The notes below the pieces were generated by a model. It was not told the origin of the DNA, did not search any database, and saw nothing but the letters and a program-made list of their open reading frames with translations. Both the position numbers and the translations under genes were made by a program. A stretch of 60,577 nucleotides of DNA from Candidatus Micrarchaeota archaeon. GTDB lineage: Archaea; Micrarchaeota; Micrarchaeia; Micrarchaeales; CABMGC01. This document shows positions 16,736-40,114 of this stretch, piece by piece (position 1 is the first letter of the stretch; every line of letters starts with the position of its first letter). The stretch is from assembly GCA_028867135.1 (NCBI GenBank), contig JAGWGW010000006.1, forward strand, positions 1 to 60,577, in the 5' to 3' direction.

Positions 16736-16738
16736 TGC

Positions 16739-17128
16739 ATGGGGACTGCTGAAAAGGCGATAATAGCAATCTCGCTACTCGGCCTCGCTGTGACTGCGTA
16801 CCTAATACTATATCATTACTCGGCTGTTCAGCTTGTCTGCCCGAACGGCGGAGGAGCCATAAACTGCGAGAAGATACTCAACAGCAGCTACTCTGTCGTA
16901 CACGGGGTGCCGCTGCCTGTCATAGGCTTTGCCTTCTTCATCATCGAGCTCCTCTTCCTCAGGATAAAGGCCAAGGAACCGATAGTCTTCCTCAACGCGC
17001 TGGCTGTCGCTGTGGTAGTATTCCTGATATACATCGAGTACACGCTGGGAAGCATATGCCTGTGGTGCACCACGGTGCACATCCTCGTAATCGCGCTTTT
17101 CCTAGTTTCGCTCTACCGCGCGAAATAA
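16739..17128 (+). CDS. vitamin K epoxide reductase (VKOR)-like membrane protein
   Basis: Four TM helices with CxxC (CLWC) in the last helix and LVCPNGGGAINCE in the loop. Adjacent to DUF929. Confidence 0.6.
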   Translation: MGTAEKAIIAISLLGLAVTAYLILYHYSAVQLVCPNGGGAINCEKILNSSYSVVHGVPLPVIGFAFFIIELLFLRIKAKEPIVFLNALAVAVVVFLIYIEYTLGSICLWCTTVHILVIALFLVSLYRAK

Positions 17129-17133
17129 TCTGC

Positions 17134-20682: not shown

Positions 20683-22335
20683 ATGAGACAAATATTGCAA
20701 ACTGCTGTTGCCGCTGCGCTGCTGTCAACGCTATTGGGCATCGCATTGGCCCAATCGTCATCCGTATCGGGCGCATTGTCGGTAGCCAACCTGAACGTGG
20801 CCCCGGAACCGATCCTGCCAGGCCAGAACGTGACCATATACTTCCAGCTTTACAACTCGTACACCTCTTCGCTGAGCAATGTCAACCTCTGGCTTCAGGG
20901 CTCCTACCCGCTGCTGAACTACTCGCCTGCAAACACCACGATAATAAGCTCTATCGCGACAGGCCTGAACACCGGTGGCCTCAACTACAAGGGGGTCGGC
21001 AACTACTATACGTATACCCTGCACATACCCAGGAACATAAAGGGCGGCTCATACACGCTGCACCTGATGGCCAGCTATACCGCTGTTCCGTCTGCCTCAT
21101 CCGGAACCTCTTCCGCGGTCACAGGCACATCCGACGTGCCCATAACGATATTCATATCGGGAACGCCCAACATCGCGCTAACGGCAAGCCCGAGTCCGCA
21201 GATAGTGCCCGGCCAGCAGTCAGATGTGAAGATAAGCGCGACTAACGCAGGAACGGACAACGCTACGAACGTAAGCATAAAGGTGCTGAATTCGAGGAAC
21301 TTCAGTGTCGCAGGTTCAAGCATGCTGAACCTCGGGACCATAGCCCAGGAGGCGTCAGGCAGCGGAACTGTCACGCTGCAGGCAAACACCAGCCTTGCAA
21401 GCGGAAATAGCTCCATACCGATGCTGCTTACGTACTCGACATTGGCAGGTGCAAACTACTCCAAGGTTGTCATGGTGCCTGTAAGCGTGCTGATAAACAG
21501 GCCGAACATAGTCGCTAGCATAATCGACGCAACGCCCACTGTGCTCCGTTCGGGCGCAAACCAGACCCTGACAGTAGGCATACAGAACATAGGGACAGGG
21601 GTCGCAAAGAACCTGACAGTGAGCTTCATGAGCACATCCAATATAACTGTCGGCAATGCCGCATCCGGCATATTCATAGCTACGCTGCAGCCGAACCAGA
21701 CTGCAACATACGGCATATCGATAACCGCAAGCTCCAACGCAAACTATACGAGCTACAGCATACCCATACGCATGGGCTACCAGACCGCCAACTACCAGCA
21801 GTCGATAAGCAAGAACACATCCATCAACGTCACGTTGCAGAAGGCCGCGATATTCAACGTCACTGGCGTCAGCGGCTACCTGAATGTCGGCGGCACCTAC
21901 GTGCCCCTTACGTTCACGGTCAGGAACGTGGGCAACGAGCCCGCCAACCATGTCACTGTCAGCCTGCAGACCATATATCCGATATCGAGCGCGAACTCGA
22001 ACGCGTACGTCGAGAGCCTTGCGCCAGGTCAGTCCAGGCAGGTGACCTTCTACGTCAACGTGGACTCGCAGGGCAATCCAGGCCCTTATCCTGTGACATT
22101 GTACGAGCAGTGGACGCAGCCTAACGGGGCGACAAACCAGCAGTACACGGGCTCCAACAACTACTACGCAAACGTTGGAGGAACGGGCAACGGCCCGATG
22201 AGCAAGCTGCCGATATCCGACATAGTGCTGGGCATAATAATAGTGGTTGCTGCTGCGCTCCTGCTCAGGAGGTTCAGGCCTGAGATATTTGCAAGGAGCG
22301 GCAAGAATGGAAAGGCAGAAAAGCCTAAGAAGTGA
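20683..22335 (+). CDS. surface protein with CARDB/DUF11-like repeats, signal peptide and C-terminal TM anchor
   Basis: Signal peptide (…ALAQSSS). Repetitive Ig-like segments rich in N-x-S/T. C-terminal LPISDIVLGIIIVVAAALLLRRFR anchor plus basic tail. Confidence 0.55.
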   Translation: MRQILQTAVAAALLSTLLGIALAQSSSVSGALSVANLNVAPEPILPGQNVTIYFQLYNSYTSSLSNVNLWLQGSYPLLNYSPANTTIISSIATGLNTGGLNYKGVGNYYTYTLHIPRNIKGGSYTLHLMASYTAVPSASSGTSSAVTGTSDVPITIFISGTPNIALTASPSPQIVPGQQSDVKISATNAGTDNATNVSIKVLNSRNFSVAGSSMLNLGTIAQEASGSGTVTLQANTSLASGNSSIPMLLTYSTLAGANYSKVVMVPVSVLINRPNIVASIIDATPTVLRSGANQTLTVGIQNIGTGVAKNLTVSFMSTSNITVGNAASGIFIATLQPNQTATYGISITASSNANYTSYSIPIRMGYQTANYQQSISKNTSINVTLQKAAIFNVTGVSGYLNVGGTYVPLTFTVRNVGNEPANHVTVSLQTIYPISSANSNAYVESLAPGQSRQVTFYVNVDSQGNPGPYPVTLYEQWTQPNGATNQQYTGSNNYYANVGGTGNGPMSKLPISDIVLGIIIVVAAALLLRRFRPEIFARSGKNGKAEKPKK

Positions 22336-24126: not shown

Positions 24127-24420
24127 ATGGAATACAACAACAGGAACATTGTGCTTCACGAGCTCATCGGGCTCAAGGTACGGGTCATCAAGTCGCTGGA
24201 TAAGAAGCAAAGAGGATTGTCCGGGACCGTGGTCGACGAGACCAAGAATACCCTGGAAATAAGGAAAGGAGCGGAAAGGAAACGGGTGATCAAGAAGATC
24301 TCCGTGTTCAAATTCTACGCTTCCGGAAGATCCTTTATTGTAAATGGTGAAGAGATAAGTTTCAGGCCCCATGAGAGGCTAGAAAAGGCGCTGAAGTATT
24401 ACAAGAGAAGAGAAGCATAA
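24127..24420 (+). CDS. rnp1: RNase P protein component 1 (Rpp29/Pop4)
   Basis: ELIGLKVRVIKS…GLSGTVVDETKNTLEI pattern. Canonical position upstream of S17. Confidence 0.7.
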   Translation: MEYNNRNIVLHELIGLKVRVIKSLDKKQRGLSGTVVDETKNTLEIRKGAERKRVIKKISVFKFYASGRSFIVNGEEISFRPHERLEKALKYYKRREA

Positions 24421-24429
24421 AGTGCTATT

Positions 24430-24714
24430 ATGGAATGCAAGGATCCTAAGTGCCCAATCCACGGGCACGTAAAGACAAGAGGAATGCAGTTCGACGGACT
24501 CGTAGTTAGCGACAAGGCCAAGCGGACAGTCATAGTGAAGGTAGACTACACCAAGTACATCTACAAGTACGAGAGGTATCTCAGGAAGAGATCCAGGATA
24601 CCTGCCCATAACCCCGAATGCATAAACGCGAAGGCGGGCGACATGGTAAGCATCGCCGAGACAAGGAGGCTCAGCAAGACCAAGTCCTTCGCTGTGATAG
24701 GGATGGCCAAGTGA
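24430..24714 (+). CDS. rps17: 30S ribosomal protein S17 (uS17)
   Basis: GMQFDGLVVSDKAKRTVIVKVDY…. Confidence 0.85.
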   Translation: MECKDPKCPIHGHVKTRGMQFDGLVVSDKAKRTVIVKVDYTKYIYKYERYLRKRSRIPAHNPECINAKAGDMVSIAETRRLSKTKSFAVIGMAK

Positions 24715-24718
24715 TACC

Positions 24719-25120
24719 ATGAAGGGAATATCGTCAGTGATAATGAAGACGCTCGTTCCAGGAGCCGTAATCCCGTGTGCTGACAACAGCGGAGCCTACG
24801 AGTTCAGGATGATACACATAATAGGAAAGACGGGAGGCAGGCACGGGAAGCAGACGGCAGTGGGAGTGGGCGACATAGTCTCGTGCAGCGTCAGGAAGGG
24901 AACGGCCACGTACCTCAAGAAGCCTGTCAGGGTCATAGTGATAAGGCAGAAGGCGTACATCAGGAGGGCGAACGGCATGAGGGTGAAGTTCGAGGACAAT
25001 GCCGGCATAATGGTGACCGAGGACAACCTCCCTGTAGGGACCGAGGTGAAGGGCGCGATGGCAAGGGAGGTAGTCGAGAGGTTCGTAAAGGTAGCAGGGG
25101 TCGCATCAAGGATAGTGTGA
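24719..25120 (+). CDS. rpl14: 50S ribosomal protein L14 (uL14)
   Basis: IPCADNSGA…GDIV… pattern. Confidence 0.9.
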   Translation: MKGISSVIMKTLVPGAVIPCADNSGAYEFRMIHIIGKTGGRHGKQTAVGVGDIVSCSVRKGTATYLKKPVRVIVIRQKAYIRRANGMRVKFEDNAGIMVTEDNLPVGTEVKGAMAREVVERFVKVAGVASRIV

Positions 25121-25125
25121 TTATC

Positions 25126-25497
25126 ATGATAAAGAGCGCGCAGAAGAGGAAGCAAAGGAAGTTCAGGTTCACCGCACCGATGCACGAGAGGCAGAAGTTC
25201 GCCAACGCGCACGTCTCAAAGGAGCTCGCATCGAAGCTGGGGATAAAGAGGAGGAGCATGCAGATAAGGAAGGGAGACACGGTCAAGGTCATGGCCGGCG
25301 ACAACAAGGGCAAGAGCGGAAAGGTGAACGACGTCAATCTTCTAAAGGGCACGGTGAGCGTAGACGGGATAATCAGGAAGAACGCCAAAGGGAAGGAGAT
25401 GCCCATACCGATAAGCGCATCGAACGTATACATAACGGAGGTCGACACGACAGACAAGGCAAGGCAGGCCAAGATAGACTCGTTCAAGAGGAAGTGA
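25126..25497 (+). CDS. rpl24: 50S ribosomal protein L24 (uL24)
   Basis: MIKSAQKRKQRKF…IRKGDTVKVMAGDNKGKSGKV (KOW). Confidence 0.85.
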   Translation: MIKSAQKRKQRKFRFTAPMHERQKFANAHVSKELASKLGIKRRSMQIRKGDTVKVMAGDNKGKSGKVNDVNLLKGTVSVDGIIRKNAKGKEMPIPISASNVYITEVDTTDKARQAKIDSFKRK

Positions 25498-26183
25498 TGA
25501 GCATGGGAGCAAAAGGAAACCAAAGGCACGTTAAGAGAATAGCGTCAAACAGGTACCTTCACGTTGAGAGGAAGATCAAGAAGTACGTAATGAAGCCAAA
25601 CGCGGGAAGGCACACGGGCAGCTCGAGCATAGCGCTGTCCACCGTGCTCAAGGAGAAGCTCATGCTCGCAAAGAATTCGTTCGAGGCCAACAAGGCGCTG
25701 AAGAGCGGCTCGATAGAGGTCAACGGCAGGGCCGTGCATGACGGAAGGTATCCGGTAGGCTTCGGAGACATAATACACATAAAACCGGCCAGGGAGAGCT
25801 TCACCGTCTATGTCGGCAAGAAGGGGGTCGTGGATTTCAGGAAGCATTCAGGAAAGGAGGAGCAGGCATTCAAGGTCATAGGCAAGTACCTCACAAACGG
25901 GAGGAAGATCATGGTAAGACTGCACAACGGCAACGTGCTCGAGGGCAGCAAGGACGTCATGGTGAACGACTCGGTGACGCTCAAGAACGGATCCATAGAC
26001 AAGGTCATGAAGCTGAAGGAAGGCGCAAGCTGCCTTGTGATAAAGGGAGTGCACGCGTCTGAGAGCGGAACGATAAGGAGCATAAAGAAGGGGACTGCGA
26101 CAAGGCCCCCCACGGTCGAGATCGAGGGCAAGAAGGGCAGCGCCGAGACGCTGCTAGACAATATAATGGTAGTTGGAGGATGA
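25494..26183 (+). CDS. rps4e: 30S ribosomal protein S4e
   Basis: HVKRIASNRYLHVERK… typical eS4. Confidence 0.85.
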   Translation: MMSMGAKGNQRHVKRIASNRYLHVERKIKKYVMKPNAGRHTGSSSIALSTVLKEKLMLAKNSFEANKALKSGSIEVNGRAVHDGRYPVGFGDIIHIKPARESFTVYVGKKGVVDFRKHSGKEEQAFKVIGKYLTNGRKIMVRLHNGNVLEGSKDVMVNDSVTLKNGSIDKVMKLKEGASCLVIKGVHASESGTIRSIKKGTATRPPTVEIEGKKGSAETLLDNIMVVGG

Positions 26184-26713
26184 GCATGGCAGACAATCCG
26201 ATGCAGGGCATCTATCTCGACAAGGTCGTCGTAAACATAGGCATCGGAGACAACGAGAACCTTTTCCAGAACGCGAAGCTGCTGCTCGAGAAGTTGACAG
26301 GGCGCAAGCCTGTCGCAGCAAGGTCCAGGACAAGGCAGCCAGAGCTGAAGCTTAGGAAAGGCCAGATAATAGGCGCGTTCGTGACATTGAGGGATGATGA
26401 TGCGAGGGACATGCTGAAGAGGGCGCTCGACGCCAACGACAACATAGTCAGCGAGAGGGGCATAGCAGGCAACTCGTTCAGTTTCGGAGTAAAGGAGTAC
26501 ATCTACTTCCCGGGAGTGAAATACGACCCCAAGATAGGCATGCTCGGGCTCAACGTCAACGCGGCTTTCAGGAGAAAGGGCAAGAGAGTGGAGACAAGAA
26601 AGAGGAAAAGGTCCAAGGTCGCGGCAACGCATAGGGAGATACCGAACACTGCGATCATGGGATACCTGAAGGACAACTTCAAGGTGAGCACGGGGAACGC
26701 AGCAGAGGCATGA
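26180..26713 (+). CDS. rpl5: 50S ribosomal protein L5 (uL5)
   Basis: VVNIGIGDN…. Confidence 0.85.
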   Translation: MSMADNPMQGIYLDKVVVNIGIGDNENLFQNAKLLLEKLTGRKPVAARSRTRQPELKLRKGQIIGAFVTLRDDDARDMLKRALDANDNIVSERGIAGNSFSFGVKEYIYFPGVKYDPKIGMLGLNVNAAFRRKGKRVETRKRKRSKVAATHREIPNTAIMGYLKDNFKVSTGNAAEA

Positions 26714-26717
26714 TTCC

Positions 26718-26876
26718 ATGAAGATGAGATACGACATGAGGAGGAAAGGAAGGGGCATGAGGAAGTGCAAGATATGCGGAACAGCAAGGGGGCTCATAAG
26801 ATCGTACGGACTCTTCGTATGCAGGAGATGCTTCAGGGAGCTCGGGCCTGAGATAGGCTTCGAGAAATACCAGTGA
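26718..26876 (+). CDS. rps14: 30S ribosomal protein S14 (uS14, zinc-binding type)
   Basis: 52-aa ORF not in the supplied track (MKMRYDMRRKGRGMRKCKICGTARGLIRSYGLFVCRRCFRELG…). CxxC…CxxC. Confidence 0.8.
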   Translation: MKMRYDMRRKGRGMRKCKICGTARGLIRSYGLFVCRRCFRELGPEIGFEKYQ

Positions 26877-26880
26877 TGTT

Positions 26881-27264
26881 ATGGTTGACGTATTCGCAGA
26901 CGCTGTGAACAAGATAAAGGTGTACGAGGACAAGGGCATGTACGAGTGCATGGTGCCGTCCACGAAGCTGCTTGCAGCGGTGCTTTCCAAGATGAAGGAG
27001 AACAACTACATAAAGGATTTCGAGGAGGTGCAGGCAGGGAAGTTCAAGAGCATAAAGATAACGCTTTCGAAGAGGATAAACGACATAGGCGTCATAAAGC
27101 CGAGGTACGCGGTCACGACCGACGACATCCAGAAGTACGAGATGAGGTACATCCCGAGCCTGCACTTCGGCATGCTCATAGTCTCGACGTCGAAGGGCAT
27201 AATGACGAACAAGGAGGCAAGGGAGAACAAGATAGGCGGAAGGCTAATAGCATATGTTTACTGA
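26881..27264 (+). CDS. rps8: 30S ribosomal protein S8 (uS8)
   Basis: Order and sequence pattern. Confidence 0.85.
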   Translation: MVDVFADAVNKIKVYEDKGMYECMVPSTKLLAAVLSKMKENNYIKDFEEVQAGKFKSIKITLSKRINDIGVIKPRYAVTTDDIQKYEMRYIPSLHFGMLIVSTSKGIMTNKEARENKIGGRLIAYVY

Positions 27265-27794
27265 TGATCATGTACGAAATAGAGATACCCAGCGGCACAA
27301 CCGTGCAATTCGCCAACGGCGAGATAACGGTAAAGGGGAAGCTGGGCTCCACAAGGAAGATGTTCAACACAAAGCTTAACACCTACAAGCAGGAAGGCGC
27401 CAAGATAAGCATAGACTGGACCAGGAACAAGAAGCTCGCGAAGAAGGCCGAGCTTGCTGCGACAGCGGTCGCCAACGAGCTAAGGGACGCGCTGAAGTAC
27501 GTCAACGAAGGCATGGAGACGCACATGAAGGTGCTCTACGCGCACTTCCCGATGTCGCTTGAGCTCAAGGGCAAGGAGCTCCACCTGAAGAACGTATTCG
27601 GGGAGAAGGTCCCAAGGACAGCCGCGATAGTGGGCGACACGAAGGTCGAGATAAAGGGTCAGGACGTCAACATCAAGGGCGTCGACAGGTACGATGTCGG
27701 GCAGACCATAGCCAACATAAGGAAGGCGTGCAAGGCTAGAGGCTACGACACAAGGGTGTTCCAGGACGGCATATACGTGAACTCAGAGGAATGA
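27264..27794 (+). CDS. rpl6: 50S ribosomal protein L6 (uL6)
   Basis: MIMYEIEIPSGTTVQF… ATG overlaps the S8 stop (tgATG). Confidence 0.85.
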   Translation: MIMYEIEIPSGTTVQFANGEITVKGKLGSTRKMFNTKLNTYKQEGAKISIDWTRNKKLAKKAELAATAVANELRDALKYVNEGMETHMKVLYAHFPMSLELKGKELHLKNVFGEKVPRTAAIVGDTKVEIKGQDVNIKGVDRYDVGQTIANIRKACKARGYDTRVFQDGIYVNSEE

Positions 27795-27798
27795 TCAT

Positions 27799-28155
27799 AT
27801 GGCTAGCAAGAAGAAGCATCCGACATTTGCGGTTCCGAACCTTGGCGCGAAAGGCAGGTCAAGGGTCAAGGACAGGTGGAGGAAGCAGAGGGGGACCGAC
27901 AACAAGCTGAGGGTCAAGGCGTACGGCCACGGCAACACGCCCAACATAGGCTACAAGAACAGCGACTCCATAAGGAACGCGAGGCCCGACGGCACGATGG
28001 AGATGCTCGTGCACAACGTAAGCGAGCTCATGATGCTTAAGGGAAAGAGCAGCTATTCAGCAGTGCTCTTCCACGGGCTTTCGTCAAGGAAAAGGATGGA
28101 GATGCAGAAGCTCGCAGACGAGAACAGGATAAGGATAACAAACAGGATGAGATAA
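27799..28155 (+). CDS. rpl32e: 50S ribosomal protein L32e
   Basis: RWRKQRGTDNKLR…. Confidence 0.85.
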   Translation: MASKKKHPTFAVPNLGAKGRSRVKDRWRKQRGTDNKLRVKAYGHGNTPNIGYKNSDSIRNARPDGTMEMLVHNVSELMMLKGKSSYSAVLFHGLSSRKRMEMQKLADENRIRITNRMR

Positions 28156-28646
28156 TGTCGATAAGATTCGCAAAAAGGGCTGCAGCGCAGATACTCAACA
28201 GGGGAGCGAGCGCGATAAGGATAAACCCGAACTCATTCTCAGAGGCAGAGAAGGCGCTGACCAAGGAGGACATAAGGAGGCTCATCTCAAGCGGAGGCAT
28301 ATTCGCGGTAAAGGAGAAGCACAACAGGACGAGCAAAGCCAAGAGGCTGAACCAGGCGAGGGCCGAGGGAAGGAGGAGGGGCCCTGGAAGAAGGAGAGGA
28401 ACTAGGAAGGCAAGGCAGGGAAGGACCTGGGAGAAGAAGGTAAGGAGCCAGAGAAGGCTCCTCTCGATGCTCAAGACGATGGGAAGGATAGACAACAAGA
28501 CCTTCACGAGGTTCTACAGGCTGATAAAGGGAAACGTATACGCGACAAAGGCAACGCTCGTTTCGCACCTTCGCGAGGAAGGCGCCAAGATAACCGATCA
28601 GGACGTGACACAGATAAACGATGAGGTAAGGAAGCTGTACAAGTGA
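28155..28646 (+). CDS. rpl19e: 50S ribosomal protein L19e
   Basis: Basic eL19 pattern. Confidence 0.85.
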   Translation: MSIRFAKRAAAQILNRGASAIRINPNSFSEAEKALTKEDIRRLISSGGIFAVKEKHNRTSKAKRLNQARAEGRRRGPGRRRGTRKARQGRTWEKKVRSQRRLLSMLKTMGRIDNKTFTRFYRLIKGNVYATKATLVSHLREEGAKITDQDVTQINDEVRKLYK

Positions 28647-29215
28647 TGCTCATGAATATCAAGGCTATCAAGTTCAGGAGAAGGCGAGAGGCGCTCACCG
28701 ACTACAAGAAGAGGTTCAGGCTCGTGAAATCGGGCATGGACAGGATAGTGATCAGGAAGACGAACAAGAGGATAATAGCGCATGCCGTCAGGTACACCGA
28801 AAAGGGGGATCAGACGCTCGCATACGCTGACTCGAGCGAGCTGAAGGCGTTCAACTGGCCCTCGAACTCGAACAGGGGAACGGCGTATCTCACAGGAATG
28901 CTGCTTGCAAGGAAGCTCAAGGAGAAAGGCTCCTCGACAGAATACATACTGGACATAGGCATAACCTCGCCCGTCAAGAACTCCATACCGTTTGTTTTCG
29001 CTAAGGGATGCGCAGACGCGGGAGTGAAGATAAGGGGCACCTTCGACATGGATAGCAATATATATGACTATTCGAATACAAAGTACATACAGGAGATGAA
29101 AAGCAAGGACGCAGAGGCGTACAAGAAGCAGTACTCCGGACTTTTGGAAAAGAAGATAGAGCCTGAGCAGATGCACAAGCTTTTCGCCGAAGTAAAATCA
29201 AGGATATTGAAGTGA
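28643..29215 (+). CDS. rpl18: 50S ribosomal protein L18 (uL18)
   Basis: Order and sequence pattern. Confidence 0.85.
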   Translation: MMLMNIKAIKFRRRREALTDYKKRFRLVKSGMDRIVIRKTNKRIIAHAVRYTEKGDQTLAYADSSELKAFNWPSNSNRGTAYLTGMLLARKLKEKGSSTEYILDIGITSPVKNSIPFVFAKGCADAGVKIRGTFDMDSNIYDYSNTKYIQEMKSKDAEAYKKQYSGLLEKKIEPEQMHKLFAEVKSRILK

Positions 29216-29219
29216 TCGG

Positions 29220-29903
29220 TTGGCCTACAATAGGAATTACAATAGGAGAGAGCCTGAGAACAGGTTCAGCATAGACGACTGGAAGCCCAAGACAAGGATA
29301 GGCGAGATGGTCAAGGCCAAGGAGATAACAAGCCTTGAGCAGATATTCGAGAGCGGCAAGATAATCAAGGAAGTCGAGATAGTGGACGCGCTCATACCGA
29401 ACATAGAGGACAACGTCATAGAGATCGCATCGGTGCAGAGGATGACCAAGAACAACAGGAAACAGAAGTACAGGGCAACTGTCGTCATTGGGGACAGGAA
29501 CGGCCACGTAGGCATAGGGGTCGGGAAGGACGTCGAGGTAAAGCCGTCGATCGAGACTGCGATAAGGGATGCGAAGAAGCACATCATATCCGTCAACATA
29601 GGCTGCGGCTCGTGGGAGTGCAACTGCGGCACGAGGCACAGCATACCGCTTACGCTCAAGGCAAAGTGCGGCTCGTCCAACGTCATACTCAAGCCTGCAC
29701 CCAAAGGGGTGGGGATAGTCGCGTCCAAGACCATAAGCTCGGTCCTCGAACTCGCAGGAATAAAGGATGTCTGGACTTTCGCGAGAGGAAGGACGAGGGA
29801 CAAGTACAACGCCGCGCTGGCCACTTACAACGCGCTGAAGAGCCTGTCAGAGATAAAGAACGTGGACGCATTGGCTGTAAAAGAAAAGAGTAAACCTAAC
29901 TAA
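29220..29903 (+). CDS. rps5: 30S ribosomal protein S5 (uS5)
   Basis: Last gene of the cluster. TTG start. Confidence 0.85.
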   Translation: MAYNRNYNRREPENRFSIDDWKPKTRIGEMVKAKEITSLEQIFESGKIIKEVEIVDALIPNIEDNVIEIASVQRMTKNNRKQKYRATVVIGDRNGHVGIGVGKDVEVKPSIETAIRDAKKHIISVNIGCGSWECNCGTRHSIPLTLKAKCGSSNVILKPAPKGVGIVASKTISSVLELAGIKDVWTFARGRTRDKYNAALATYNALKSLSEIKNVDALAVKEKSKPN

Positions 29904-29949: not shown

Positions 29950-30849
29950 ATGCCTTCCTTGAGATTTGTGAGGACCAAAAGACTCCAATCCGCGATGGAG
30001 TACCTCATGACATATGGTTGGGCCATCCTCGCAATCGCAATCGTGATGGTCTCTCTCTATTCTTTGGGCATATTCAGTCTTGGAAATCTGCAACCTACTG
30101 CGACTCCCGGTTCCTGCCAGGTGATAAGGACAACTGCGCAGACGAGCCTTGCAGGTCAATGCAACAACCTTATTCCGAAGTATGTAGGCAGCTTCAACGG
30201 CGCAAACAGCTATATCTCAGTTCCCGATGCAAAGGTGCAGAGATCCATGACAACAGCCAGCTTTATCGGATGGATATATACCGCCACTACCGACGCGTCC
30301 TCTTACGACATGATGATAGCAAAGTACGCAACCAACCAGATAGGCTACAACTTCTATCTCAGCGGCGGATCACTACGCTGCTCGCTGTACAATGCCAGCG
30401 GCAATTCGGTGGATCACGCAATGGCTCCGAACCTGCATGATGGAAAGTGGCATTTTGTCGCATGCACTTATAACGGCAGCACGATGACGCTGTACGAAGA
30501 TGGGAAGTTCCTTGCAAGCTGGACCGGCACGTGGCAGCAGACTGGATCATGGACATTGAACCCTCTCGGATTGGGCTACAGGGGATACGGAGGCACGCTG
30601 TATTGCAATTGCTACCTTTCAAACCTGCAGATATACAACTCCTCGCTCGATTCGTCATCCATAAAGGCGCTATACCTGGAGGGAATAGGAGGCGTGCCGA
30701 TAGATCTCCAGGACCTTGTCGCATGGTATCCACTGAACGGGAATGCCAACGACTACTCGGGTTTGAACAGCAACGCGAATCTCAGCGGGATTGTAAACAC
30801 CGTCTGGAACGCGAACTGGCAGTCAGGGTACAAAGCGCCAACCTCCTGA
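29950..30849 (+). CDS. class III signal peptide (prepilin-like) LamG/ConA-like protein, paralog 2
   Basis: MPSLRFVRTKRLQSAMEYLMTYGWAILAIAIVMV… N-terminus. C-terminus LVAWYPLNGNANDYSGLNSNANLSG…WNANWQSGYKAPTS. Core is LamG-like. Confidence 0.6.
   Translation: MPSLRFVRTKRLQSAMEYLMTYGWAILAIAIVMVSLYSLGIFSLGNLQPTATPGSCQVIRTTAQTSLAGQCNNLIPKYVGSFNGANSYISVPDAKVQRSMTTASFIGWIYTATTDASSYDMMIAKYATNQIGYNFYLSGGSLRCSLYNASGNSVDHAMAPNLHDGKWHFVACTYNGSTMTLYEDGKFLASWTGTWQQTGSWTLNPLGLGYRGYGGTLYCNCYLSNLQIYNSSLDSSSIKALYLEGIGGVPIDLQDLVAWYPLNGNANDYSGLNSNANLSGIVNTVWNANWQSGYKAPTS
29986..30200 (+). repeat. 5' cassette of pilin-like gene (left arm of inverted repeat)
   Basis: About 174 nt (30027..30200) is 100% identical to the reverse complement of 35164..35337. 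A further 40 nt toward the ATG is near-identical. Confidence 0.8.
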
Positions 30850-30855
30850 ACTGCA

Positions 30856-31539
30856 TTATTTCACTATGCTTCCCTTGTAAGGCTTGCCCAGTATCGCCTT
30901 CTCTATCTCTGCCATGTCGTTGCTCACGAACCTTACTTCTATCCTCGACCTTCTCGCAAGCTTGCATCCGACCAGGTCGAACACGAAAGGAGCCTTTGCC
31001 TCCCTGCTGTCGTACTTGTATGCAAGATCGAGGAGCTGCTGGTAATTGAGCCTCTCCAGGCGCTTTGCCCCCTTCTCTGAAGGGTTCTTATCGTATATGT
31101 ATCCTACGCTGCTGACGTTTATCAGCGTCTTGCAGCCAGTGACCTCGCATGCGAGCACGGTAGACGCATCGGTGGTTATTCCCGGGATCAGCCCTCCCAT
31201 CAGCACGAGCTCGTTCTCGTTTATCGCAGCCTTGAGCTCCTCGAGGTTCGTGACCACGTTGGGGTAGGTCTTGAAATCCGAGAAAAGGTCCTTCATCATC
31301 AGCGCGTTTATCCTAGTGAACGCTATTCCCACCTCGTCGAGCAGCGCGTTGTTGTTTATGATGCTCCTTGTCGAGTTGATGTATAGCCTGTTGGCATACC
31401 CTCCGCCAACCACTATTATGAACTTGTACTTGTGTATGGCGCTCTTAAGCAATTTTGAGAACCTCTTGATGAAACCGACATTTATGCCCTCCTCTGTCGA
31501 TATTATGCTTCCTCCTAAAGATATGCAGATTATCTCCAT
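30856..31539 (-). CDS. pyrH: UMP kinase (uridylate kinase)
   Basis: Amino-acid-kinase fold motifs (IVVGGG, TTDASTVLAC) in 227 aa. Confidence 0.65.
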   Translation of the reverse strand: MEIICISLGGSIISTEEGINVGFIKRFSKLLKSAIHKYKFIIVVGGGYANRLYINSTRSIINNNALLDEVGIAFTRINALMMKDLFSDFKTYPNVVTNLEELKAAINENELVLMGGLIPGITTDASTVLACEVTGCKTLINVSSVGYIYDKNPSEKGAKRLERLNYQQLLDLAYKYDSREAKAPFVFDLVGCKLARRSRIEVRFVSNDMAEIEKAILGKPYKGSIVK

Positions 31540-31542
31540 CTT

Positions 31543-32448
31543 CTACCTCTTACTATCTCCTTTAGATAAGTATAATATTATTGCCTTTTCGACCAGCAGC
31601 TTGTTCTTCGCCTGCCTCCAGACTATGCTCCTTCTGCCGTCTATGACGCTTGCCGTTATCTCCTCGCCCCTGTGTGCGGGCAGGCAGTGCATCACGCTTG
31701 CATTTCTCCTTGCGTACGAGAGTGCCTGGTCGTTCAGCTGGTACGGCATGAACATCTCGCGCCTCCTTTCAGCATCATCCTCCTGGCCCATGCTGACGAA
31801 AGTGTCTGTCGAGACAATGTCGGCATTCCTGAGCCCCTTTTTGATGTCGCTGCCTACCTCCACCTTCGAATACTTCCTTGCCTTTCTCACGTATTCGTCA
31901 TTAGGTGCGCAGCTATCGGGGCCTACAAGCGATACCTTCGCACCCAGCATCGCAGCGCCTACCATCAGCGAGTTTGCGGTGTTCGCGGCTATGTCCCCCA
32001 TAATCGCTATCCTCAGCCCCTTTATCCTTTTCTTTGCCTCCCTTATCGTATACAGGTCGCTCAGCGCCTGGCACGGATGCTCAAGGTCTGTGAGTGCGTT
32101 GATCACTGGAACAGACGAGAATCTCGACAGCTCTACCAGCATTGAGTGCCTGTACATCCTGGCAGCTATGAAGTCGACATACGAGCTCAGGACCTTTGCA
32201 GTATCCGCGACGGTCTCTCCCCTCGACATCTGCGAGCTTCTGGAATCGATGTATATCGAGTAGCCGCCCAGCTGCGCCATCGCTGCCTCGAACGAGACCC
32301 TTGTCCTTGTGGAAGCCTTCTCGAACAGCAGCGCCAGCGTCTTCCTCCTCCTGAAGCGGAATCCGCCGTCCGCCTTCAGGTCATCGGCGATGGAGAATAT
32401 GCTCTCTATGCCTTTTCTCCCGAAGTCGTCAACGCAAAGGAAGTTCAT
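31543..32448 (-). CDS. argF: ornithine carbamoyltransferase-like
   Basis: STRTR, HPCQ, SMG and HCLP motifs. 301 aa. Confidence 0.65.
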   Translation of the reverse strand: MNFLCVDDFGRKGIESIFSIADDLKADGGFRFRRRKTLALLFEKASTRTRVSFEAAMAQLGGYSIYIDSRSSQMSRGETVADTAKVLSSYVDFIAARMYRHSMLVELSRFSSVPVINALTDLEHPCQALSDLYTIREAKKRIKGLRIAIMGDIAANTANSLMVGAAMLGAKVSLVGPDSCAPNDEYVRKARKYSKVEVGSDIKKGLRNADIVSTDTFVSMGQEDDAERRREMFMPYQLNDQALSYARRNASVMHCLPAHRGEEITASVIDGRRSIVWRQAKNKLLVEKAIILYLSKGDSKR

Positions 32449-32457
32449 CCAATCTAT

Positions 32458-32832
32458 CTATCCAAAAAGCAGGCCTATGCCCTGCTCGCTCTCCTTTCTT
32501 TCCTCTTCAATCGTAGCTATTATCTTGGCTTCGAGCTCAGGCTCCACCCTCTTCAGGCTGCCTATGCCCTCTTTCAGCTTCTTCTCGCCCTTTTCAAGGA
32601 ACTCGTCAGGCGCGCTAATTGTGAGATAGTACATGCCCCTGTCCAATCCAAGCGAGGTTCCGTCCTTGAGCCAGTAGTCCTGCCTGGCGAATATTATGTT
32701 CGCGTTTGGATCGTCCTTTAGTCCTGCGAGTTCCGCTTCGCTCTTGCTCTTGTCAAGATAAGGATCATATTCGAGCAGCTGCTTCAGCGCGCCAGCATCC
32801 TTGGCTTCGCAGCTGTAGACGCGCATACCCAT
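32458..32832 (-). CDS. hypothetical protein
   Basis: 124-aa ORF between argF-like and S8e. Confidence 0.35.
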   Translation of the reverse strand: MGMRVYSCEAKDAGALKQLLEYDPYLDKSKSEAELAGLKDDPNANIIFARQDYWLKDGTSLGLDRGMYYLTISAPDEFLEKGEKKLKEGIGSLKRVEPELEAKIIATIEEERKESEQGIGLLFG

Positions 32833-32836
32833 GGCA

Positions 32837-33229
32837 TCACAGCTTCTTCGCGTTGATGAAGCCCTCCTTCCCGGGCCTGTTTACCACGACGGCCCTTCCT
32901 GCATCCGTCAGTATGACTGTGCCCTTGGTGATTATGTTCATCCTTGCGAAGTTCCTGTTGTCCTTTGATTCGACGACCCCGGTTATCTTGACCTTCTTGT
33001 ACGACTTGCCTTCAAGAAGGTTTGCGAATCCTGCGTACTGCATCTTGCTCCTTCTTGAGCCTCCCCTGACCCTGACATTCTTGGATGAGTTGCTCTCTCC
33101 AAGCTTCGTGGCTACGAAGTATCCTCCCATCTCGTGCCTCCTCTTGTCACGGTTGTTCTTCTTTATCTTGCCGCTTCCATTCAGGGTCCTGCCTGACCTT
33201 CCATGGAACTGCGCACCAAACTGGCTCAT
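32837..33229 (-). CDS. rps8e: 30S ribosomal protein S8e
   Basis: KVKITGVVESKDNRNFARMNIITKGTVILTDAGRAVVVNRPGKEGFINAKKL matches the eS8 C-terminus. Start assigned at MSQFGAQF. Confidence 0.7.
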   Translation of the reverse strand: MSQFGAQFHGRSGRTLNGSGKIKKNNRDKRRHEMGGYFVATKLGESNSSKNVRVRGGSRRSKMQYAGFANLLEGKSYKKVKITGVVESKDNRNFARMNIITKGTVILTDAGRAVVVNRPGKEGFINAKKL

Positions 33230-33322
33230 AGTATCAACATAAAATGAGATCAGAAACGTCAATATACTTATCAATAACAAGGAATATAAAGATTACATAG
33301 GAGATGCTCGTATGGTGCATCG

Positions 33323-33766
33323 ATGGGCATAGAGAGGGAGCTAGGTAAGCCTGCAGCGTACGCATGCTCCTCAGCTGTTGAGCCGCAGAGGCTGCTCAAT
33401 GAGGCAAGGAAGCTCTCAAGGGGCAACTCCTTCATACTGCTCCTTGACAAGAGAAGGGGCATAGAGGACAGGCTACTTCCTGCATACCTTAACGCGTACC
33501 TCAGGCATAGGGAGAGGAGCATGAGGTCAGAAAGCCTTCAGATAGAGGTCCTGCTATTCGCGGCCATGACCATGCAGATAGGCAGCGCGATAAAAAGCCA
33601 CGGCATAAGGAACCAAAAGGGCTTTATAATCTTCACGAACAGGAAGCAGTTGCTCAAAAGGATGCAGAAGAAGTTTCCCATAAAGCTCTCCAAGGAGCTG
33701 AAACTGTCGCTCGGTTCGGAGGAAAGCGGAAGAATGGCGGTACTGCCAATATCCTATGTCAGGTAG
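33323..33766 (+). CDS. cgi121: KEOPS complex subunit Cgi121-like
   Basis: Pattern ILLLD…EVLLFAAMTMQIGSAIKSHGI aligns with archaeal Cgi121 (IL.AD…EIL..A…QI..AIK..G). About 147 aa. Confidence 0.4.
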   Translation: MGIERELGKPAAYACSSAVEPQRLLNEARKLSRGNSFILLLDKRRGIEDRLLPAYLNAYLRHRERSMRSESLQIEVLLFAAMTMQIGSAIKSHGIRNQKGFIIFTNRKQLLKRMQKKFPIKLSKELKLSLGSEESGRMAVLPISYVR

Positions 33767-34424
33767 CGGTCTCGCTCTCCCCAAATTGGGAATCAAGGAT
33801 CTCGCTTATCCTTGCCGCTTTTTTCTTGCCTATCTTGTCCACTTCTTGCAGCTCTTCTGCATTGGCATTTACTATGTTCTTTATGCTCTTGAAATGCGAT
33901 ATCAGGTTCCTTGCGAGCTTCGGCCCTACGCCTGGCATAGAGCTGAGTATGAGCAGCTGCCACTGCTCGGTCGTGTACGCCTTTTTCAGCCCCAACAGCC
34001 TAGGCTCCCTGTTCTCCTGCACCTGCTCTCTTTCCGCAGCCTTGCAGAGTATCGACACTGTCTGCTCCTTCCCGTTCGATCTCAGTATCTGCAGGTTGTA
34101 ATCCGTATAAAGCTTGAGCATGGTGCCTACTATCACGTTGCTTCCGAGCCTGAAGTCATCCTCTCCCTCTATCAGCATTATCGGCTTCTTGTAGCTGTCG
34201 TTGAGCCTTGAGATCTGGTCGAAGAGCCTGTTGTCTATTATCGAGCTTTCGAAGTCGCTGACCGTCTTCCTCTCTATGCATATCCTGTCCGATACTACGT
34301 AATCGCCTACGGGCAGCTGCGCGAAGGTGATGTCCACGCCGTTGCCTGAGAGCCCCTCTATTATGCTGAGGTCGCGCTCCCTGTTGTCGACTATCATCTT
34401 CAGCTCCTTCATCTCTACCATCAA
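33759..34424 (-). CDS. XPF/ERCC4-type nuclease, short form with C-terminal HhH2
   Basis: ERCC4 motif VDNRER…GDYVV…ERKTVSDF. C-terminal helix-hairpin-helix (GVGPKLARNLISHF). Confidence 0.65.
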   Translation of the reverse strand: MMVEMKELKMIVDNRERDLSIIEGLSGNGVDITFAQLPVGDYVVSDRICIERKTVSDFESSIIDNRLFDQISRLNDSYKKPIMLIEGEDDFRLGSNVIVGTMLKLYTDYNLQILRSNGKEQTVSILCKAAEREQVQENREPRLLGLKKAYTTEQWQLLILSSMPGVGPKLARNLISHFKSIKNIVNANAEELQEVDKIGKKKAARISEILDSQFGESETAT

Positions 34425-34493
34425 AACAAGCGATTTCCTTTACCAGTTAAAAATTATAAGCACTTCCATTGTGATCACGAAGCCAATGTTCTG

Positions 34494-35387
34494 TCACGAT
34501 GAAGGAAGCGAGTATCCGTTCTGCCAGTTCGCGTTCCAGATAACGTTTGTTGGAGTTCCCTGGTTGTTGTTACCAGAATAGTCGTTCGCATTGCCGTTCA
34601 GCGGCCACCATGCTACTAGATGGCCTACATCTATAGGTGCGCCTCCTATTCCCTCCTTGTAGAGTGCTTTTACTGTCGTATTGTCAAGCGATGCATTGTA
34701 GATTTGGACGTCTGCAATTGAACCATTGAAGTATAAGCCGGAATAGGCTCCAGCCCTCCCTATCATATAAGGCTGGGCTGTAAGGTTGCCTCCACTGACG
34801 GTCTGCGTCAAAGTATTTATGACAACGCCATTCTTGTAGAATACTACATTGCTTCCGTCGTATGTTATGGAGAGCATGACCCATTTTCCTGCTGGAAAGT
34901 TAGTAGAGTTGTACTTCTGCCCTGAGCAGGCCTTCTGTTCTGATCCACCGCTTGTTATAATCGTATACCAGCTGCCATCTGGACACATACCGACATTGAG
35001 CACACCAAGCACGTATCTGGCGCTGACATCAGAACCACCGCTATTTCCTCCACACATCACATTCTGACGGTAGGTATAGTCGCCGTTAGGCGCTATCCAT
35101 ACGGTCATCGTTGCCGCTGCTGTCGAACTGAAGTTTCCCACGCTGACATAGCTATGATGTGCTCCGTTGAAGCTGCCTACATACTTCGGAATAAGGTTGT
35201 TGCATTGACCTGCAAGGCTTGTCTGCGCAGTTGTCCTTATCACCTGGCAGGAACCGGGAGTCGCAGTAGGTTGCAGATTTCCAAGACTGAATATGCCCAA
35301 AGAATAGAGAGAGACCATCACGATTGCGATTGCGAGGACGGTCCATCCATAGGTCATGAGGTATTCCATTGCAGACTGCGATAGCAT
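34494..35387 (-). CDS. class III signal peptide (prepilin-like) LamG/ConA-like protein, paralog 3
   Basis: MLSQSAMEYLMTYGWTVLAIAIVMV… N-terminus. C-terminus LVAWWPLNGNANDYSGNNNQGTPTNVIWNANWQNGYSLPSS. Confidence 0.6.
   Translation of the reverse strand: MLSQSAMEYLMTYGWTVLAIAIVMVSLYSLGIFSLGNLQPTATPGSCQVIRTTAQTSLAGQCNNLIPKYVGSFNGAHHSYVSVGNFSSTAAATMTVWIAPNGDYTYRQNVMCGGNSGGSDVSARYVLGVLNVGMCPDGSWYTIITSGGSEQKACSGQKYNSTNFPAGKWVMLSITYDGSNVVFYKNGVVINTLTQTVSGGNLTAQPYMIGRAGAYSGLYFNGSIADVQIYNASLDNTTVKALYKEGIGGAPIDVGHLVAWWPLNGNANDYSGNNNQGTPTNVIWNANWQNGYSLPSS
35164..35369 (-). repeat. 5' cassette of pilin-like gene (right arm of inverted repeat)
   Basis: Reverse complement is identical to 30027..30200 over about 174 nt. 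Confidence 0.8.
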
Positions 35388-35428: not shown

Positions 35429-36196
35429 ATGATACTTATGGCGAGAAGGGTCAGCAGGAGGAAGGAACCGAGCAGAGAGAAGCACATGATTAAGGAGCAG
35501 CTGAAGATTGAGGAGGGCGTATTCGACAACAGGACAATGATGAACCTGAGCAGGGTGTTCACGCACAACATCGCCTCAAAGCTCCTCTTCCTTACTGCGA
35601 AGGGAAAGGAGGCTGACGTATACGTCGCTGAGCACGGATCAAGGGTTGATTCCGAGCTTGTCATTCTGAAGATATTCCGTATAGAAACATCGCATTTCTT
35701 CAAGCGCGACCTCTACATAAAGGGGGATCCAAGGTTCGAGAAGATAAAGCTCAACCAGATGGGCATAATAAACACGTGGTGCAAGAAGGAGTACGGCAAC
35801 CTCAAGCTCGCAGAACTCGCGGGGGTCCATGCGCCAAAGCCATACTACTTCAGCGGCAACGTCCTTGCGATGGAGTTCATAGGAAAGGACGGAATTCCTT
35901 CAAGCACGCTGAAGAATGCAGGAACTCCTAATCCGAAAAGGACCCTCGATCTAATCATAGAGGACATGAAGAGGATGTACCAGAACGAGCTGGTGCATGC
36001 GGACATGAGCGAGTACAACATACTGATGCAAGGTGACGTTCCATACATAATAGACTTCGGCCAGGCTGTAGTGCTTGGGCATCCAAGCGCGATGAAATTC
36101 CTGAACAGAGATGTAGGCATCATACTCCAGTTCTTCAGGAAGTCTTACGGCATAGACATGGACCCGGAAGAGGCGCTGAAGCGGATAACAAAATAG
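35429..36196 (+). CDS. rio1: RIO-type serine/threonine protein kinase (Rio1)
   Basis: GKEADVY, LVHADMSEYNIL, IIDFGQAV. The true start may be the internal Met at 35486. Confidence 0.7.
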   Translation: MILMARRVSRRKEPSREKHMIKEQLKIEEGVFDNRTMMNLSRVFTHNIASKLLFLTAKGKEADVYVAEHGSRVDSELVILKIFRIETSHFFKRDLYIKGDPRFEKIKLNQMGIINTWCKKEYGNLKLAELAGVHAPKPYYFSGNVLAMEFIGKDGIPSSTLKNAGTPNPKRTLDLIIEDMKRMYQNELVHADMSEYNILMQGDVPYIIDFGQAVVLGHPSAMKFLNRDVGIILQFFRKSYGIDMDPEEALKRITK

Positions 36197-37620: not shown

Positions 37621-37907
37621 TATTATGCAGCAACTGATATAAAATAGTTGGGATTTTAGGTTCTGTCAACAAATCCGTCAGTTGAATTGTAGTGTCGCAT
37701 TCGTCAGGTGGAAATACCAAACTTTCCTCTCCGCATTCTTCTATCATTCCATTTCTGTTCATATTCAGAGCAAAAGCTCGATTCTTGGGGTGAATAGATG
37801 AAAAATCTAGTTCTTAAAATTAAGAAACTTCTGTCAAAACCAGAAAAATTGTTATCAGCTAATACTTTTTATAGTAATTGCCATATGTTTTATTTTAGGT
37901 TTATACA

Positions 37908-38768
37908 TTACTCTATCTTCTTAAATAGAAGATAATAAACCCAGAATAGAATTAGATTGATTATTATTAGATATATACTTAGTTTAAAGTATATACGCAC
38001 GCTGGAATTTATCAAAACTGGTAAATTAACCACATACGAGTATAAACCCGTTGAATTAAGCCAAGCAGAACCAACTTTCATGTTTAATACATAGTTTTGA
38101 CCATTTATGATATTGGCATTTTGTTCCTGTTGCTGTGCTAATGTAATATATTGTGTCCAATTTGAATGGATTATAGTATTATTATCTGTTGTGAGGAAGG
38201 TATTAATTGCTCTATATATACCTTGATAAATGCCTGCTACTGACAATGTATGTAATATTCCGATAAAGAGCAGAATTAATGGTGTTATCATTAAAAAGAT
38301 TACCAAATATCTAAGCCAATTATATCCATTTGAAGAACGCATTTTCTTAATTTCATCCTTAAAAAGTTTCAGAAATTCAACAAATACAAGAGAGTATAAA
38401 CCCATCAAGGTTGCAGATATAGCCAAATAAGTTTCTAAAAATTGATTAAAATAAGTTGTTAGGTAAGGCAAAGCTAAAGATGTCAGATACTGTATATGGT
38501 TGGGTTCGCAAGAATTAAAATTAAGCGGAGCAGAACCTGTAAAGTTTGCAGAGCTGGTTACAATGCCATTCACAGCAATTGAATTAGGTAAGTAAATGGT
38601 AGAAAACTTGCAATTAGAGAATGTAATACCTGCATAGATATTAGAAAAAGCCTGTGTTGTCGAGTTGGTTGATAGAATATAATTAGACCATGATAGTAAT
38701 GTTATTGCAAGAATTATTACTAATCCGATAAATAGGTACAGCCATCCGTTTACAGCCATAGATGCCAT
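37908..38768 (-). CDS. hypothetical polytopic membrane protein in AT-rich island
   Basis: 286-aa ORF, GC about 30%. Segmental resemblance to the 477..1187 protein (FKKDxxKxxR…W…LxxIxxF). Confidence 0.45.
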   Translation of the reverse strand: MASMAVNGWLYLFIGLVIILAITLLSWSNYILSTNSTTQAFSNIYAGITFSNCKFSTIYLPNSIAVNGIVTSSANFTGSAPLNFNSCEPNHIQYLTSLALPYLTTYFNQFLETYLAISATLMGLYSLVFVEFLKLFKDEIKKMRSSNGYNWLRYLVIFLMITPLILLFIGILHTLSVAGIYQGIYRAINTFLTTDNNTIIHSNWTQYITLAQQQEQNANIINGQNYVLNMKVGSAWLNSTGLYSYVVNLPVLINSSVRIYFKLSIYLIIINLILFWVYYLLFKKIE

Positions 38769-38822
38769 ACTACATAAAAGCCTTTAAACTTAATCTATAA
38801 GTGCTTCAATAAACTCATCCAT

Positions 38823-39158
38823 CTATTCCTTCCGTTTCCTATGCTTATCCTCGGCCATCTCCGATGGCGTAAGACCATTAAAGCTTGTGTGTGGCCTTAC
38901 GAAGTGTAATAGGTCTGCGTTATTATTTTCCATAGTTATTCCTTTGTTTTGAAAATTTCCCCCAATTTCCATTCTCACATTATTTGAAGATATTATTGCC
39001 TTTTCACCTACCACAACCCTCGCACCATTGGAACCTACATTTTTCAGCGGTTCACCACATTTATCGCACCGTATAATTCCAGTCGAGTATACTGCAAAAG
39101 CTACACCATCATCATGTCCACATCTACTACAAACAGTCATATCTATTCCTCTTTCCAA
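38823..39158 (-). pseudogene. zinc-ribbon protein gene fused to an IS transposase 3'-end remnant
   Basis: N-terminus CSRCG…CDKCG. C-terminus …HFVRPHTSFNGLTPSEMA is encoded by a roughly 50-nt sequence (38846..38898) nearly identical to the reverse complement of 360..413. Confidence 0.45.
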
Positions 39159-39176
39159 CCTTGTGCTTCTATCTCA

Positions 39177-39335
39177 TCATGGTAATATATGTGGTAATTT
39201 GCCTGTGAATATGAATATTAATAAGAACACTCCCAAAATTATCCAGACTAAAAGAAAAACCCAGAAAGTCATACCCATATCTATTTCAACTTTTAACTTT
39301 TGAATGTCATTTCCTTTCTCTACCACATTATCCAT
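39177..39335 (-). CDS. small single-TM protein (52 aa)
   Basis: Unlisted ORF MDNVVEKGNDIQKLKVEIDMGMTFWVFLLVWIILGVFLLIFIFTGKLPHILP. Preceded by the same roughly 30-nt leader as the zinc-ribbon gene. Confidence 0.3.
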   Translation of the reverse strand: MDNVVEKGNDIQKLKVEIDMGMTFWVFLLVWIILGVFLLIFIFTGKLPHILP

Positions 39336-39449
39336 CCTTCCAATCCTGTGCCTCTATCTCCTCATCTAACTTCCTCTGCAGAAGGTCGATAGGTTTCATA
39401 TTTCTATAGACTACATCATATTATATAATGCTTCACTGGTGAGTTATAT

Positions 39450-39745
39450 AGCGCAGCAGGAAGGCGGGAAGCTAGGGGTTTCCCCCACCACAAATCCCCT
39501 TCAGGTGGGCCACATGCCTGCAGAGTAGTTTGCAAAGAATATGGGACCCATGCCGAAGCGTTGAGGCTCTGCCTCCAGTGGTAGTTCTGTGTATGAAACG
39601 GGCCAGGCCGGAAGGAGCAACCCTAAGTATATGGCAACATGACTAAGAGCATTTGCGTACAAAGATCTATGCTTTGGAGATACAGAACCGAGCAGAGGCA
39701 TGACAATCCCATACTCTTTCATGCTGCAATGCAGGCCAATGCTGC
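39450..39745 (+). ncRNA. signal recognition particle RNA (7S/SRP RNA)
   Basis: Conserved helix-8 motif GGGCCAGGCCGGAAGGAGCAACC at about 39602..39624. GC-rich structured region with an AT-rich TATA (atattatataa) roughly 25 nt upstream. Immediately followed by tRNA-Ser. Ends are approximate. Confidence 0.55.
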
Positions 39746-39749
39746 ACAT

Positions 39750-39833
39750 GCCGGGTTCGCCTAGAGGTATGGCGGTGGATTGCTAATCCACTTGGTCGAA
39801 AGACCTTCACGAGTTCGATTCTCGTACCCGGCG
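39750..39833 (+). tRNA. tRNA-Ser (anticodon GCU)
   Basis: Acceptor GCCGGGT/ACCCGGC. Anticodon stem-loop GTGGA-TTGCTAA-TCCAC. Long variable arm. T-arm ACGAG-TTCGATT-CTCGT. Confidence 0.8.
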
Positions 39834-40114
39834 TTCATCCTATCCTTATCTTGCAAACCGACCTGTGGGAAGCGTTGAAGCGGAACTATACAAACTAACG
39901 AAGCGCGGTAAATCTCTATATTCACAGATACTAAAGAAACTTAAGAAGATCCGCATAATCCCGGTAAATGGATGCACGGCGCTTATCCTGGAGTTAAGGA
40001 AATCCACCTTATGCACGTCCATCTCGTGCTCATGTTCGGGATTGATGGGCAAGAGAAGGTGGTGTCCATAGCCAACTTTGAACACCATCCGGAATCGCAT
40101 GGTTATTAATTTGC

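Follow-up and report, generated by a model that had tools for sequence, protein, structure and literature searches.

The 60,577-bp contig of a Candidatus Micrarchaeota metagenome-assembled genome (MAG), which in its entirety forms the window analysed here, carries two convergent genes for pilin-like, LamG-bearing proteins (P2 and P3) whose 5' coding portions form an inverted repeat around a 5-kb block of housekeeping genes. Codon-level comparison of these genes with each other and with their relatives indicates that a tract of about 175 nucleotides (nt) within the repeat is probably the product of a recent gene conversion between P2 and P3. Such an event is ordinary concerted evolution between neighbouring paralogs, statistically solid and mechanistically ordinary. 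A preceding sequence-only reading of this DNA had proposed recent conversion or, in its place, an actively recombining, possibly invertible, segment that could have split a ribosomal gene cluster; the first of these proposals is the one that our data support. The genes and repeat elements concerned, including a third paralog (P1) in the same window, are as follows.

1489–2391, + strand: P1, the third paralog, used as the unconverted control
29950–30849, + strand: P2, pilin-like N-terminus plus LamG, 299 amino acids (aa) from the ATG at 29950; in NCBI MDE1849637.1, of 293 aa, with its start six codons downstream at about 29968
34494–35387, − strand: P3, pilin-like N-terminus plus LamG, 297 aa (MDE1849644.1)
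29986–30204, + strand: left arm of the repeat, P2 codons ~13–85, covering the signal-peptide motif, the hydrophobic helix and the conserved Cys-containing N-domain
35160–35378, − strand: right arm of the repeat, P3 codons ~4–76
30027–30200, + strand: homogenised tract (probable gene conversion), left copy, with its 3' boundary at the end of the conserved N-domain (...FNGA)
35164–35337, − strand: homogenised tract, right copy

The repeat search recovered two arms of 219 nt each, 95% complementary and spaced 4955 nt apart, and this was the only repeat of at least 88% identity and at least 60 nt within the window. A 34-mer derived from the arm had exactly two matches in the window at up to three mismatches (chance expectation 0); an exact search of the same 34-mer against JGI metagenome contigs returned no match, and so no extra strains or junctions came from there. 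The core of the left arm (30027–30200) agrees with the reverse complement of 35164–35337 at 173 of 174 positions, the sole difference being a synonymous G/A at 30144 and the longest perfect run 117 nt. Thus the inverted repeat first described as a perfect one of 174 bp is real, though imperfect at one base. Nor does near-identity continue toward both start codons, as had been claimed: the 41 nt 5' of 30027 hold nine mismatches (~78% identity, the usual paralog level), and the leaders upstream of 29986 and 35378 are mutually unrelated.

Synonymous sites carry the case for conversion. Where both proteins have the same residue, only one of 57 codons differs between P2 and P3 within the tract, as against 24 of 52 (~46%) when P1 is compared with P2 over the same codons (binomial P = 2e-14). 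Beyond the tract limits, P2 and P3 themselves differ at 7/14, 8/15 and 8/19 identical-residue codons in parts that are just as conserved, namely the 5' 25 codons and the C-terminal domain. P1 shares 78.7% nucleotide identity and 52 of 57 residues over the tract, which corrects the earlier statement that it has the same protein sequence there at about 75% nucleotide identity. Furthermore, the tract peptide occurs at 57/57 residues in no other homolog among the top 120, so the homogenisation is specific to the neighbouring pair. Its 3' end coincides with the end of P2/P3 homology and its 5' end falls inside the homologous region. A recent inverted duplication was considered and rejected because the variable cores of P2 and P3 share only ~14–35% protein identity.

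Relatives place the event in time. Three independent assemblies of the window's species are available: the window itself (locus tags KGI00_), L082 (GCA_028867475.1, KGH74_), and L083 plus L001 (GCA_028867445.1, contig JAGWGJ010000072). These are mutually 99–99.9% identical (differing by 0.14–1% elsewhere), and the tract, including its single G/A difference, is common to all three. In the sister species (L002, MAG REEA68, ~80% nucleotide identity to the window), the two syntenic genes agree at only 74% of positions over 183 nt, and at 63% across the tract codons, compared with 99.4% for the tract here. The conversion proposed in the sequence-only reading is therefore upheld both by synonymous sites homogenised within the ~175-nt tract alone and by the divergence of the sister-species arms. 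As the tract is present in three of three strains and absent from the sister species, the event falls after the species split and before strain divergence. One strain varies in detail: the L082 left arm differs from the window at 29991 and 30000, just 5' of the tract, and carries the right-arm base at 30000, so the KGH74 strain may have a slightly longer conversion tract.

Mechanistically, non-reciprocal homologous recombination would have copied the conserved N-domain sequence of one gene (about 175 nt) onto the other, and the tract limits (the end of homology at the 3' side, a point within homology at the 5' side) are as expected for heteroduplex-limited conversion. The machinery may have been RadA-type strand exchange or replication template switching between the inverted copies. 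While the homogenisation is observed, together with where it stops, its restriction to this lineage and the constant orientation of the block, the direction of transfer between P2 and P3 is something we infer. The P2 tract is 72.5% identical in nucleotides to its counterpart in S_X, the sister-species ortholog of the P2 core, and the core is 80% identical; the sequences weakly hint that P2 was the recipient. Several considerations count against an account of this simplicity: the hint as to donor and recipient is weak, a conversion with an even number of crossovers would give the same picture, a minority of cells may carry an inverted block given that the evidence consists of assemblies, and every sequence is a short-read MAG assembly from a single study. 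With these caveats, gene conversion remains the preferred reading, and the pair stands as a record of homologous conversion at work in a DPANN archaeon that is uncultivated and has a reduced genome.

The two genes belong to a large family. P1, P2 and P3 all match Laminin_G_3 (PF13385; 64, 69 and 55 bits, respectively, against a 27.6-bit cut-off), and the N-terminus of each reads as a basic leader, then QSAMEYLMTYGW, then a hydrophobic stretch, with the motif [KR]xQSAMEYLMTYGWAILAIAIVMVSLYSL shared by the three paralogs and their homologs. All three thus display the class III signal-peptide pattern (short basic leader, Q at +1, E at +5 and a hydrophobic helix of ~20 residues). The AlphaFold2 (AF2) model of P2 (mean predicted local distance difference test, pLDDT, 76) has a helix at residues 15–38 followed by a jelly roll, which matches the PAPP-A LamG module, pentraxins, laminin LG4-5 and botulinum neurotoxin (BoNT) Hc at E about 1e-9. 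Pfam Class_IIIsignal (PF04021) found no match in the N-terminal 50–60 residues even at E ≤ 10, and the NCBIfam pilin models gave none either, NCBIfam as a whole returning only a far-sub-threshold TafC match to the jelly-roll part, so the label "pilin-like" derives only from the motif and the predicted helix. On these grounds P2 and P3 are predicted to be pilin-like surface proteins; no prepilin peptidase and no pilus assembly ATPase or platform is encoded within the window. Homologs in the family number 2076 at E ≤ 1e-10, almost all of them in Micrarchaeota, and at least 21 of the top 120 are encoded by a single 727-kb contig of the sister species. The family counts at least ~25 paralogs per ~1-Mb genome. 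An expansion of LamG-like jelly-roll proteins has been described in the micrarchaeote Mia14, with a proposed role in host-cell contact; some members are linked to type IV pilus loci, of which Mia14 has two, together with one FlaK-like peptidase (PMC5498576).

Could the tract be one trace of a much wider process? The core and C-terminal part of P2 have a sister-species ortholog (84% identical in protein, 80% in nucleotides) that lies at another locus, between genes for a YchF-like GTPase and a GT2 glycosyltransferase (L084, 10001–10876; REEA68 contig JAGWHD010000002), whereas the sister species' S5-adjacent and RIO1-adjacent genes have unrelated cores (20–29% protein identity). Family members must therefore change loci, or exchange cores, between sister species, and such changes fit recombination through the conserved ends, without proving it. 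It follows that the tract could be a trace of frequent recombination among LamG-pilin genes, amounting to an archaeal surface-variation system based on homologous recombination; we regard this as unlikely. Under such a system variable cores may move between loci with the conserved coding ends, 5' and 3', serving as homology arms, and the P2/P3 arms may occasionally invert the block. Such an inversion would trade cores between two settings, one with a promoter of its own and one to which transcription probably extends from the ribosomal operon. If true, a DPANN symbiont could vary its host-contact surface through LamG-pilin recombination. The family would merit systematic recombination analysis if host attachment is its role.

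A second alternative concerns the block itself, whose genes and flanks are the following.

29220–29903, + strand: ribosomal protein S5, final gene of the ribosomal-protein cluster (about 24127–29903)
30856–31539, − strand: amino-acid-kinase family protein (UMP-kinase-like), first enclosed gene
31543–32448, − strand: aspartate/ornithine carbamoyltransferase
32458–32832, − strand: conserved 124-aa protein (orf124), no family match
32837–33280, − strand: ribosomal protein S8e
33323–33766, + strand: Cgi121-like protein, supported only by a weak Pfam score (21 bits; cut-off 25 bits)
33759–34424, − strand: XPF/ERCC4 nuclease with HhH2, last enclosed gene
35429–36196, + strand: RIO1 kinase, divergent from P3, in the right unique flank

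The enclosed pyrH-like, carbamoyltransferase, S8e and XPF genes named in the sequence-only reading were all recovered by Pfam, Cgi121 scoring below the cut-off, and the left arm does follow rps5 directly, S5 ending at 29903, 47 nt ahead of P2. Homologous recombination between the arms might occasionally flip this 5-kb block as a slow expression switch, so that the cores of P2 and P3 would trade places, one next to the ribosomal operon and the other behind the promoter divergent from RIO1, leaving the identity tract as a by-product of repeated crossovers. The geometry permits it, with the arms at the 5' ends of convergent genes; the 117-nt perfect run would suffice for homologous recombination, the L082 contig breaks within the right arm as an unresolved repeat would, and conversion of bacterial tuf genes has been linked to inversions (PMC6735719). 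All five assembled junctions, however, have the window's orientation (the left junction in the window, L082 and L083; the right in the window and L001). The sister species keeps the same gene order and orientation, which reads S5 (>), pilin-like gene (>), pyrH (<), carbamoyltransferase (<), orf124 (<), S8e (<), Cgi121-like (>), XPF (<), pilin-like gene (<), RIO1 (>). Moreover, in six distant Micrarchaeota (L003, L005, L015, L025, L026, L027) the block comes after S5 in an identical orientation, with no pilin-like genes at its flanks, so the present orientation is ancestral. Chimeric proteins joining a P2 leader to a P3 core, or the reverse, were absent from the 90%-identity clusters of P2 and P3 in a collection of 15 billion proteins, and a flip would also reverse six housekeeping genes. 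That an inversion would swap the core following each promoter or leader, as first suggested, is sound as geometry; the mature proteins would be nearly unchanged, given that the N-terminal domains differ at only two residues. Occasional flipping is thus improbable, and with no recombinase in the genes scanned either, the claim of an actively invertible segment was not borne out, and the repeat is not to be taken for an invertible switch.

A further explanation is that two similar paralog 5' ends were merged into one consensus during assembly. The data are indeed short-read MAGs, and the N-termini of this family do break assemblies, as where L082 stops within the right arm, the usual kind of contig break at a repeat, or where P0244, the ortholog of P1, is truncated N-terminally. 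Against merging, the tract, its arm-specific G/A difference and its sharp boundaries were recovered in three separate assemblies, and paralogs at the usual ~78% identity have too few k-mers in common for an assembler to merge them. We accordingly consider an artefact very improbable. Repeats of this kind do explain why MAG assemblies of such organisms break at LamG-pilin genes.

Less credible still is a site-specific inversion switch like Hin/Gin, the shufflon or fimS, working on sites in the arms. All that speaks for it is that an inverted repeat brackets a segment and adjoins genes for variable surface proteins. Yet no recombinase domain, serine or tyrosine, was found by Pfam in the 30 window proteins scanned, which include all genes at 29.2–36.9 kb, and the only mobile-element gene is an IS240-type fragment 29 kb away. 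The arms, moreover, are coding sequence and only 74% identical within the sister species, so there is no conserved crossover site, and the orientation is invariant; a site-specific invertase was rejected on the lack of both recombinase and sites. Equally remote is selection on the nucleotide sequence itself, through an RNA or DNA element in the 5' coding region, for which nothing speaks beyond the identity of the two copies and which was rejected because the region is only 57–80% identical in nucleotides in P1, the sister syntenic genes and the P2 core-ortholog despite near-identical protein.

The repeat had also been linked to the ribosomal cluster, on the view that an inversion between the arms split an spc-like operon at S5. 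The observation behind this view stands: the contiguous archaeal spc-type arrangement L18-S5-L30-L15-SecY is not found at the window, and none of L30, L15 and SecY was detected in it with L30 and L15 queries taken from another Micrarchaeota locus (L020) and a SecY query that was methanogen-derived only. A methanogen-derived L15 query proved insensitive, having missed the L15 of L020. Yet the interpretation fails, because an inversion between the arms flips only the enclosed DNA, which holds none of the three genes, and could not have split the cluster. Nor is the break peculiar to this genome. L30, L15 and SecY adjoin S5 in 0 of the 56 Micrarchaeota loci fetched around S5, and in the 51 with at least 1.5 kb downstream L30 never directly follows S5, as against 24 of 24 euryarchaeal loci. 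Since the break is common to all Micrarchaeota loci examined, it is an old trait of the group.

Where L30 and L15 lie could be seen in three loci. In L020 the pair sits 6 kb downstream of S5 (16579–17443), and queries derived from it matched nothing close to S5 elsewhere. Two further Micrarchaeota MAGs, apparently of the same NCBI submission series as the window, have the pair between the genes for the phenylalanyl-tRNA synthetase (PheRS) alpha and beta subunits and that for a beta-CASP nuclease (L085, 7571–8396; L086, 5603–6441). There, no SecY follows the pair and no pilin-like gene occurs within 8 kb, so the pilin-like 5' cassette that the sequence-only reading suggested looking for beside L30/L15 is missing and the flanks are unrelated. 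A search for L15 homologs did not place the window genome's own copy among the top 120. These loci suggest that L30-L15 is a two-gene unit detached from S5 in Micrarchaeota, with no SecY following. The position of P2 beside the end of the ribosomal cluster is a coincidence, and the repeat is not to be taken as what split the cluster. As a separate observation, the gene after S5 opens with the class-III-type motif (QSAxEYLxTYGW) in 4 of the 51 loci (L011, L014, L018 and the sister species), so a pilin-like gene beside the end of the ribosomal-protein cluster recurs in several lineages.

Other features of the assemblies deserve record. The L001 contig is 99% identical to window positions 37707–34131, save that its final 400 nt (3581–3980) have no window match, and its XPF gene is only 54% identical overall because of this unmatched end, which reflects either chimerism at the end of the contig or a replacement at strain level. 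A 555-bp contig in the REEA68 bin encodes a protein (P0243; MDE1852104.1, KGH69_05500) identical to the C-terminal half of P3 at 147 of 148 residues, whereas sister-species genes are otherwise ~85% identical in protein; the contig was probably cross-binned from the window's species. Within the window, a truncated IS240/IS6-type DDE transposase gene (rve_3, DDE_Tnp_IS240; 6–476, + strand) lies at the contig start and is the probable reason for the end of the assembly at that point. The gene at 20683–22335 (+ strand) encodes a protein of 550 aa that looks secreted and carries CARDB / NPCBM-associated and Ig-like domains; it is a further putative adhesion protein, similar to those noted for Mia14.

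Downstream of the block, an archaeal signal recognition particle (SRP) RNA (RF01857) gave a full-length match at 39450–39748 on the + strand (63 bits, E = 9e-14), ending one base ahead of tRNA-Ser(GCT) at 39749–39834; as the match is below the Rfam gathering score of 96.5, it is overlooked at default thresholds. Between the window and the sister species, the interval 39414–39839 shows 91% identity and the surrounding genes ~80%. Just upstream, a low-GC stretch at ~37900–39200 (38.6% in the 38–40 kb bin, compared with ~52% elsewhere) holds open reading frames at 37908–38768 (a membrane-like protein) and 38823–39158, neither with a family match, and the interval from eIF-2beta to the SRP RNA measures 1.76 kb in the window and 0.63 kb in the sister species. 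The stretch looks like a species-specific insertion.

How does the P2/P3 pair compare with known systems? In the Hin, Gin and Cin systems, the R64 shufflon and fimS, inverted repeats bracket a segment beside genes for surface structures. The P2/P3 repeats likewise bracket a segment by surface-structure genes, but no recombinase is encoded among the scanned genes, the repeats are long coding sequence and only one orientation is found; on each defining feature of site-specific inversion switches that was tested, the region falls short. In Neisseria, silent promoterless pilS cassettes donate variable sequence to the single expression locus pilE. With that system the pair shares a pilin-type multigene family, conserved ends with a variable middle and recombination between copies. 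However, P2 and P3 are both complete genes, and it was the conserved N-domain that was transferred, not the variable core.

Closer in lineage is the LamG expansion of Mia14, which shares phylum, family (PF13385) and the many paralogs per ~1-Mb genome, though the account of it covers the expansion and not recombination among the members, and P2 and P3 lie in a housekeeping neighbourhood rather than in a pilus locus or genomic island (PMC5498576). Concerted evolution of archaeal paralogs is itself established, through the mtrA copies of methanogens (PMC4632066) and a prokaryote-wide survey (PMC6053082); there, as here, paralogs within a genome are in part more alike than orthologs across species, yet those archaeal cases are ancient and recurrent, whereas P2 and P3 present one recent, short tract. 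A close parallel is found in gene conversion between inverted paralogs, well documented for tufA and tufB in Salmonella (PMC5485169). The P2/P3 pair departs from it in several respects: homogenisation is confined to ~175 nt of the ~900-nt gene, the remainder having diverged too far, it shows no sign of long duration, the sister species being without the tract, the genes lie 5 kb apart, and the organism is a DPANN archaeon in which the machinery is inferred. The two systems have in common inverted paralogs, non-reciprocal homogenisation that includes synonymous sites, a tract bounded by homology and a substrate that could also yield inversion (PMC5485169, PMC6735719).

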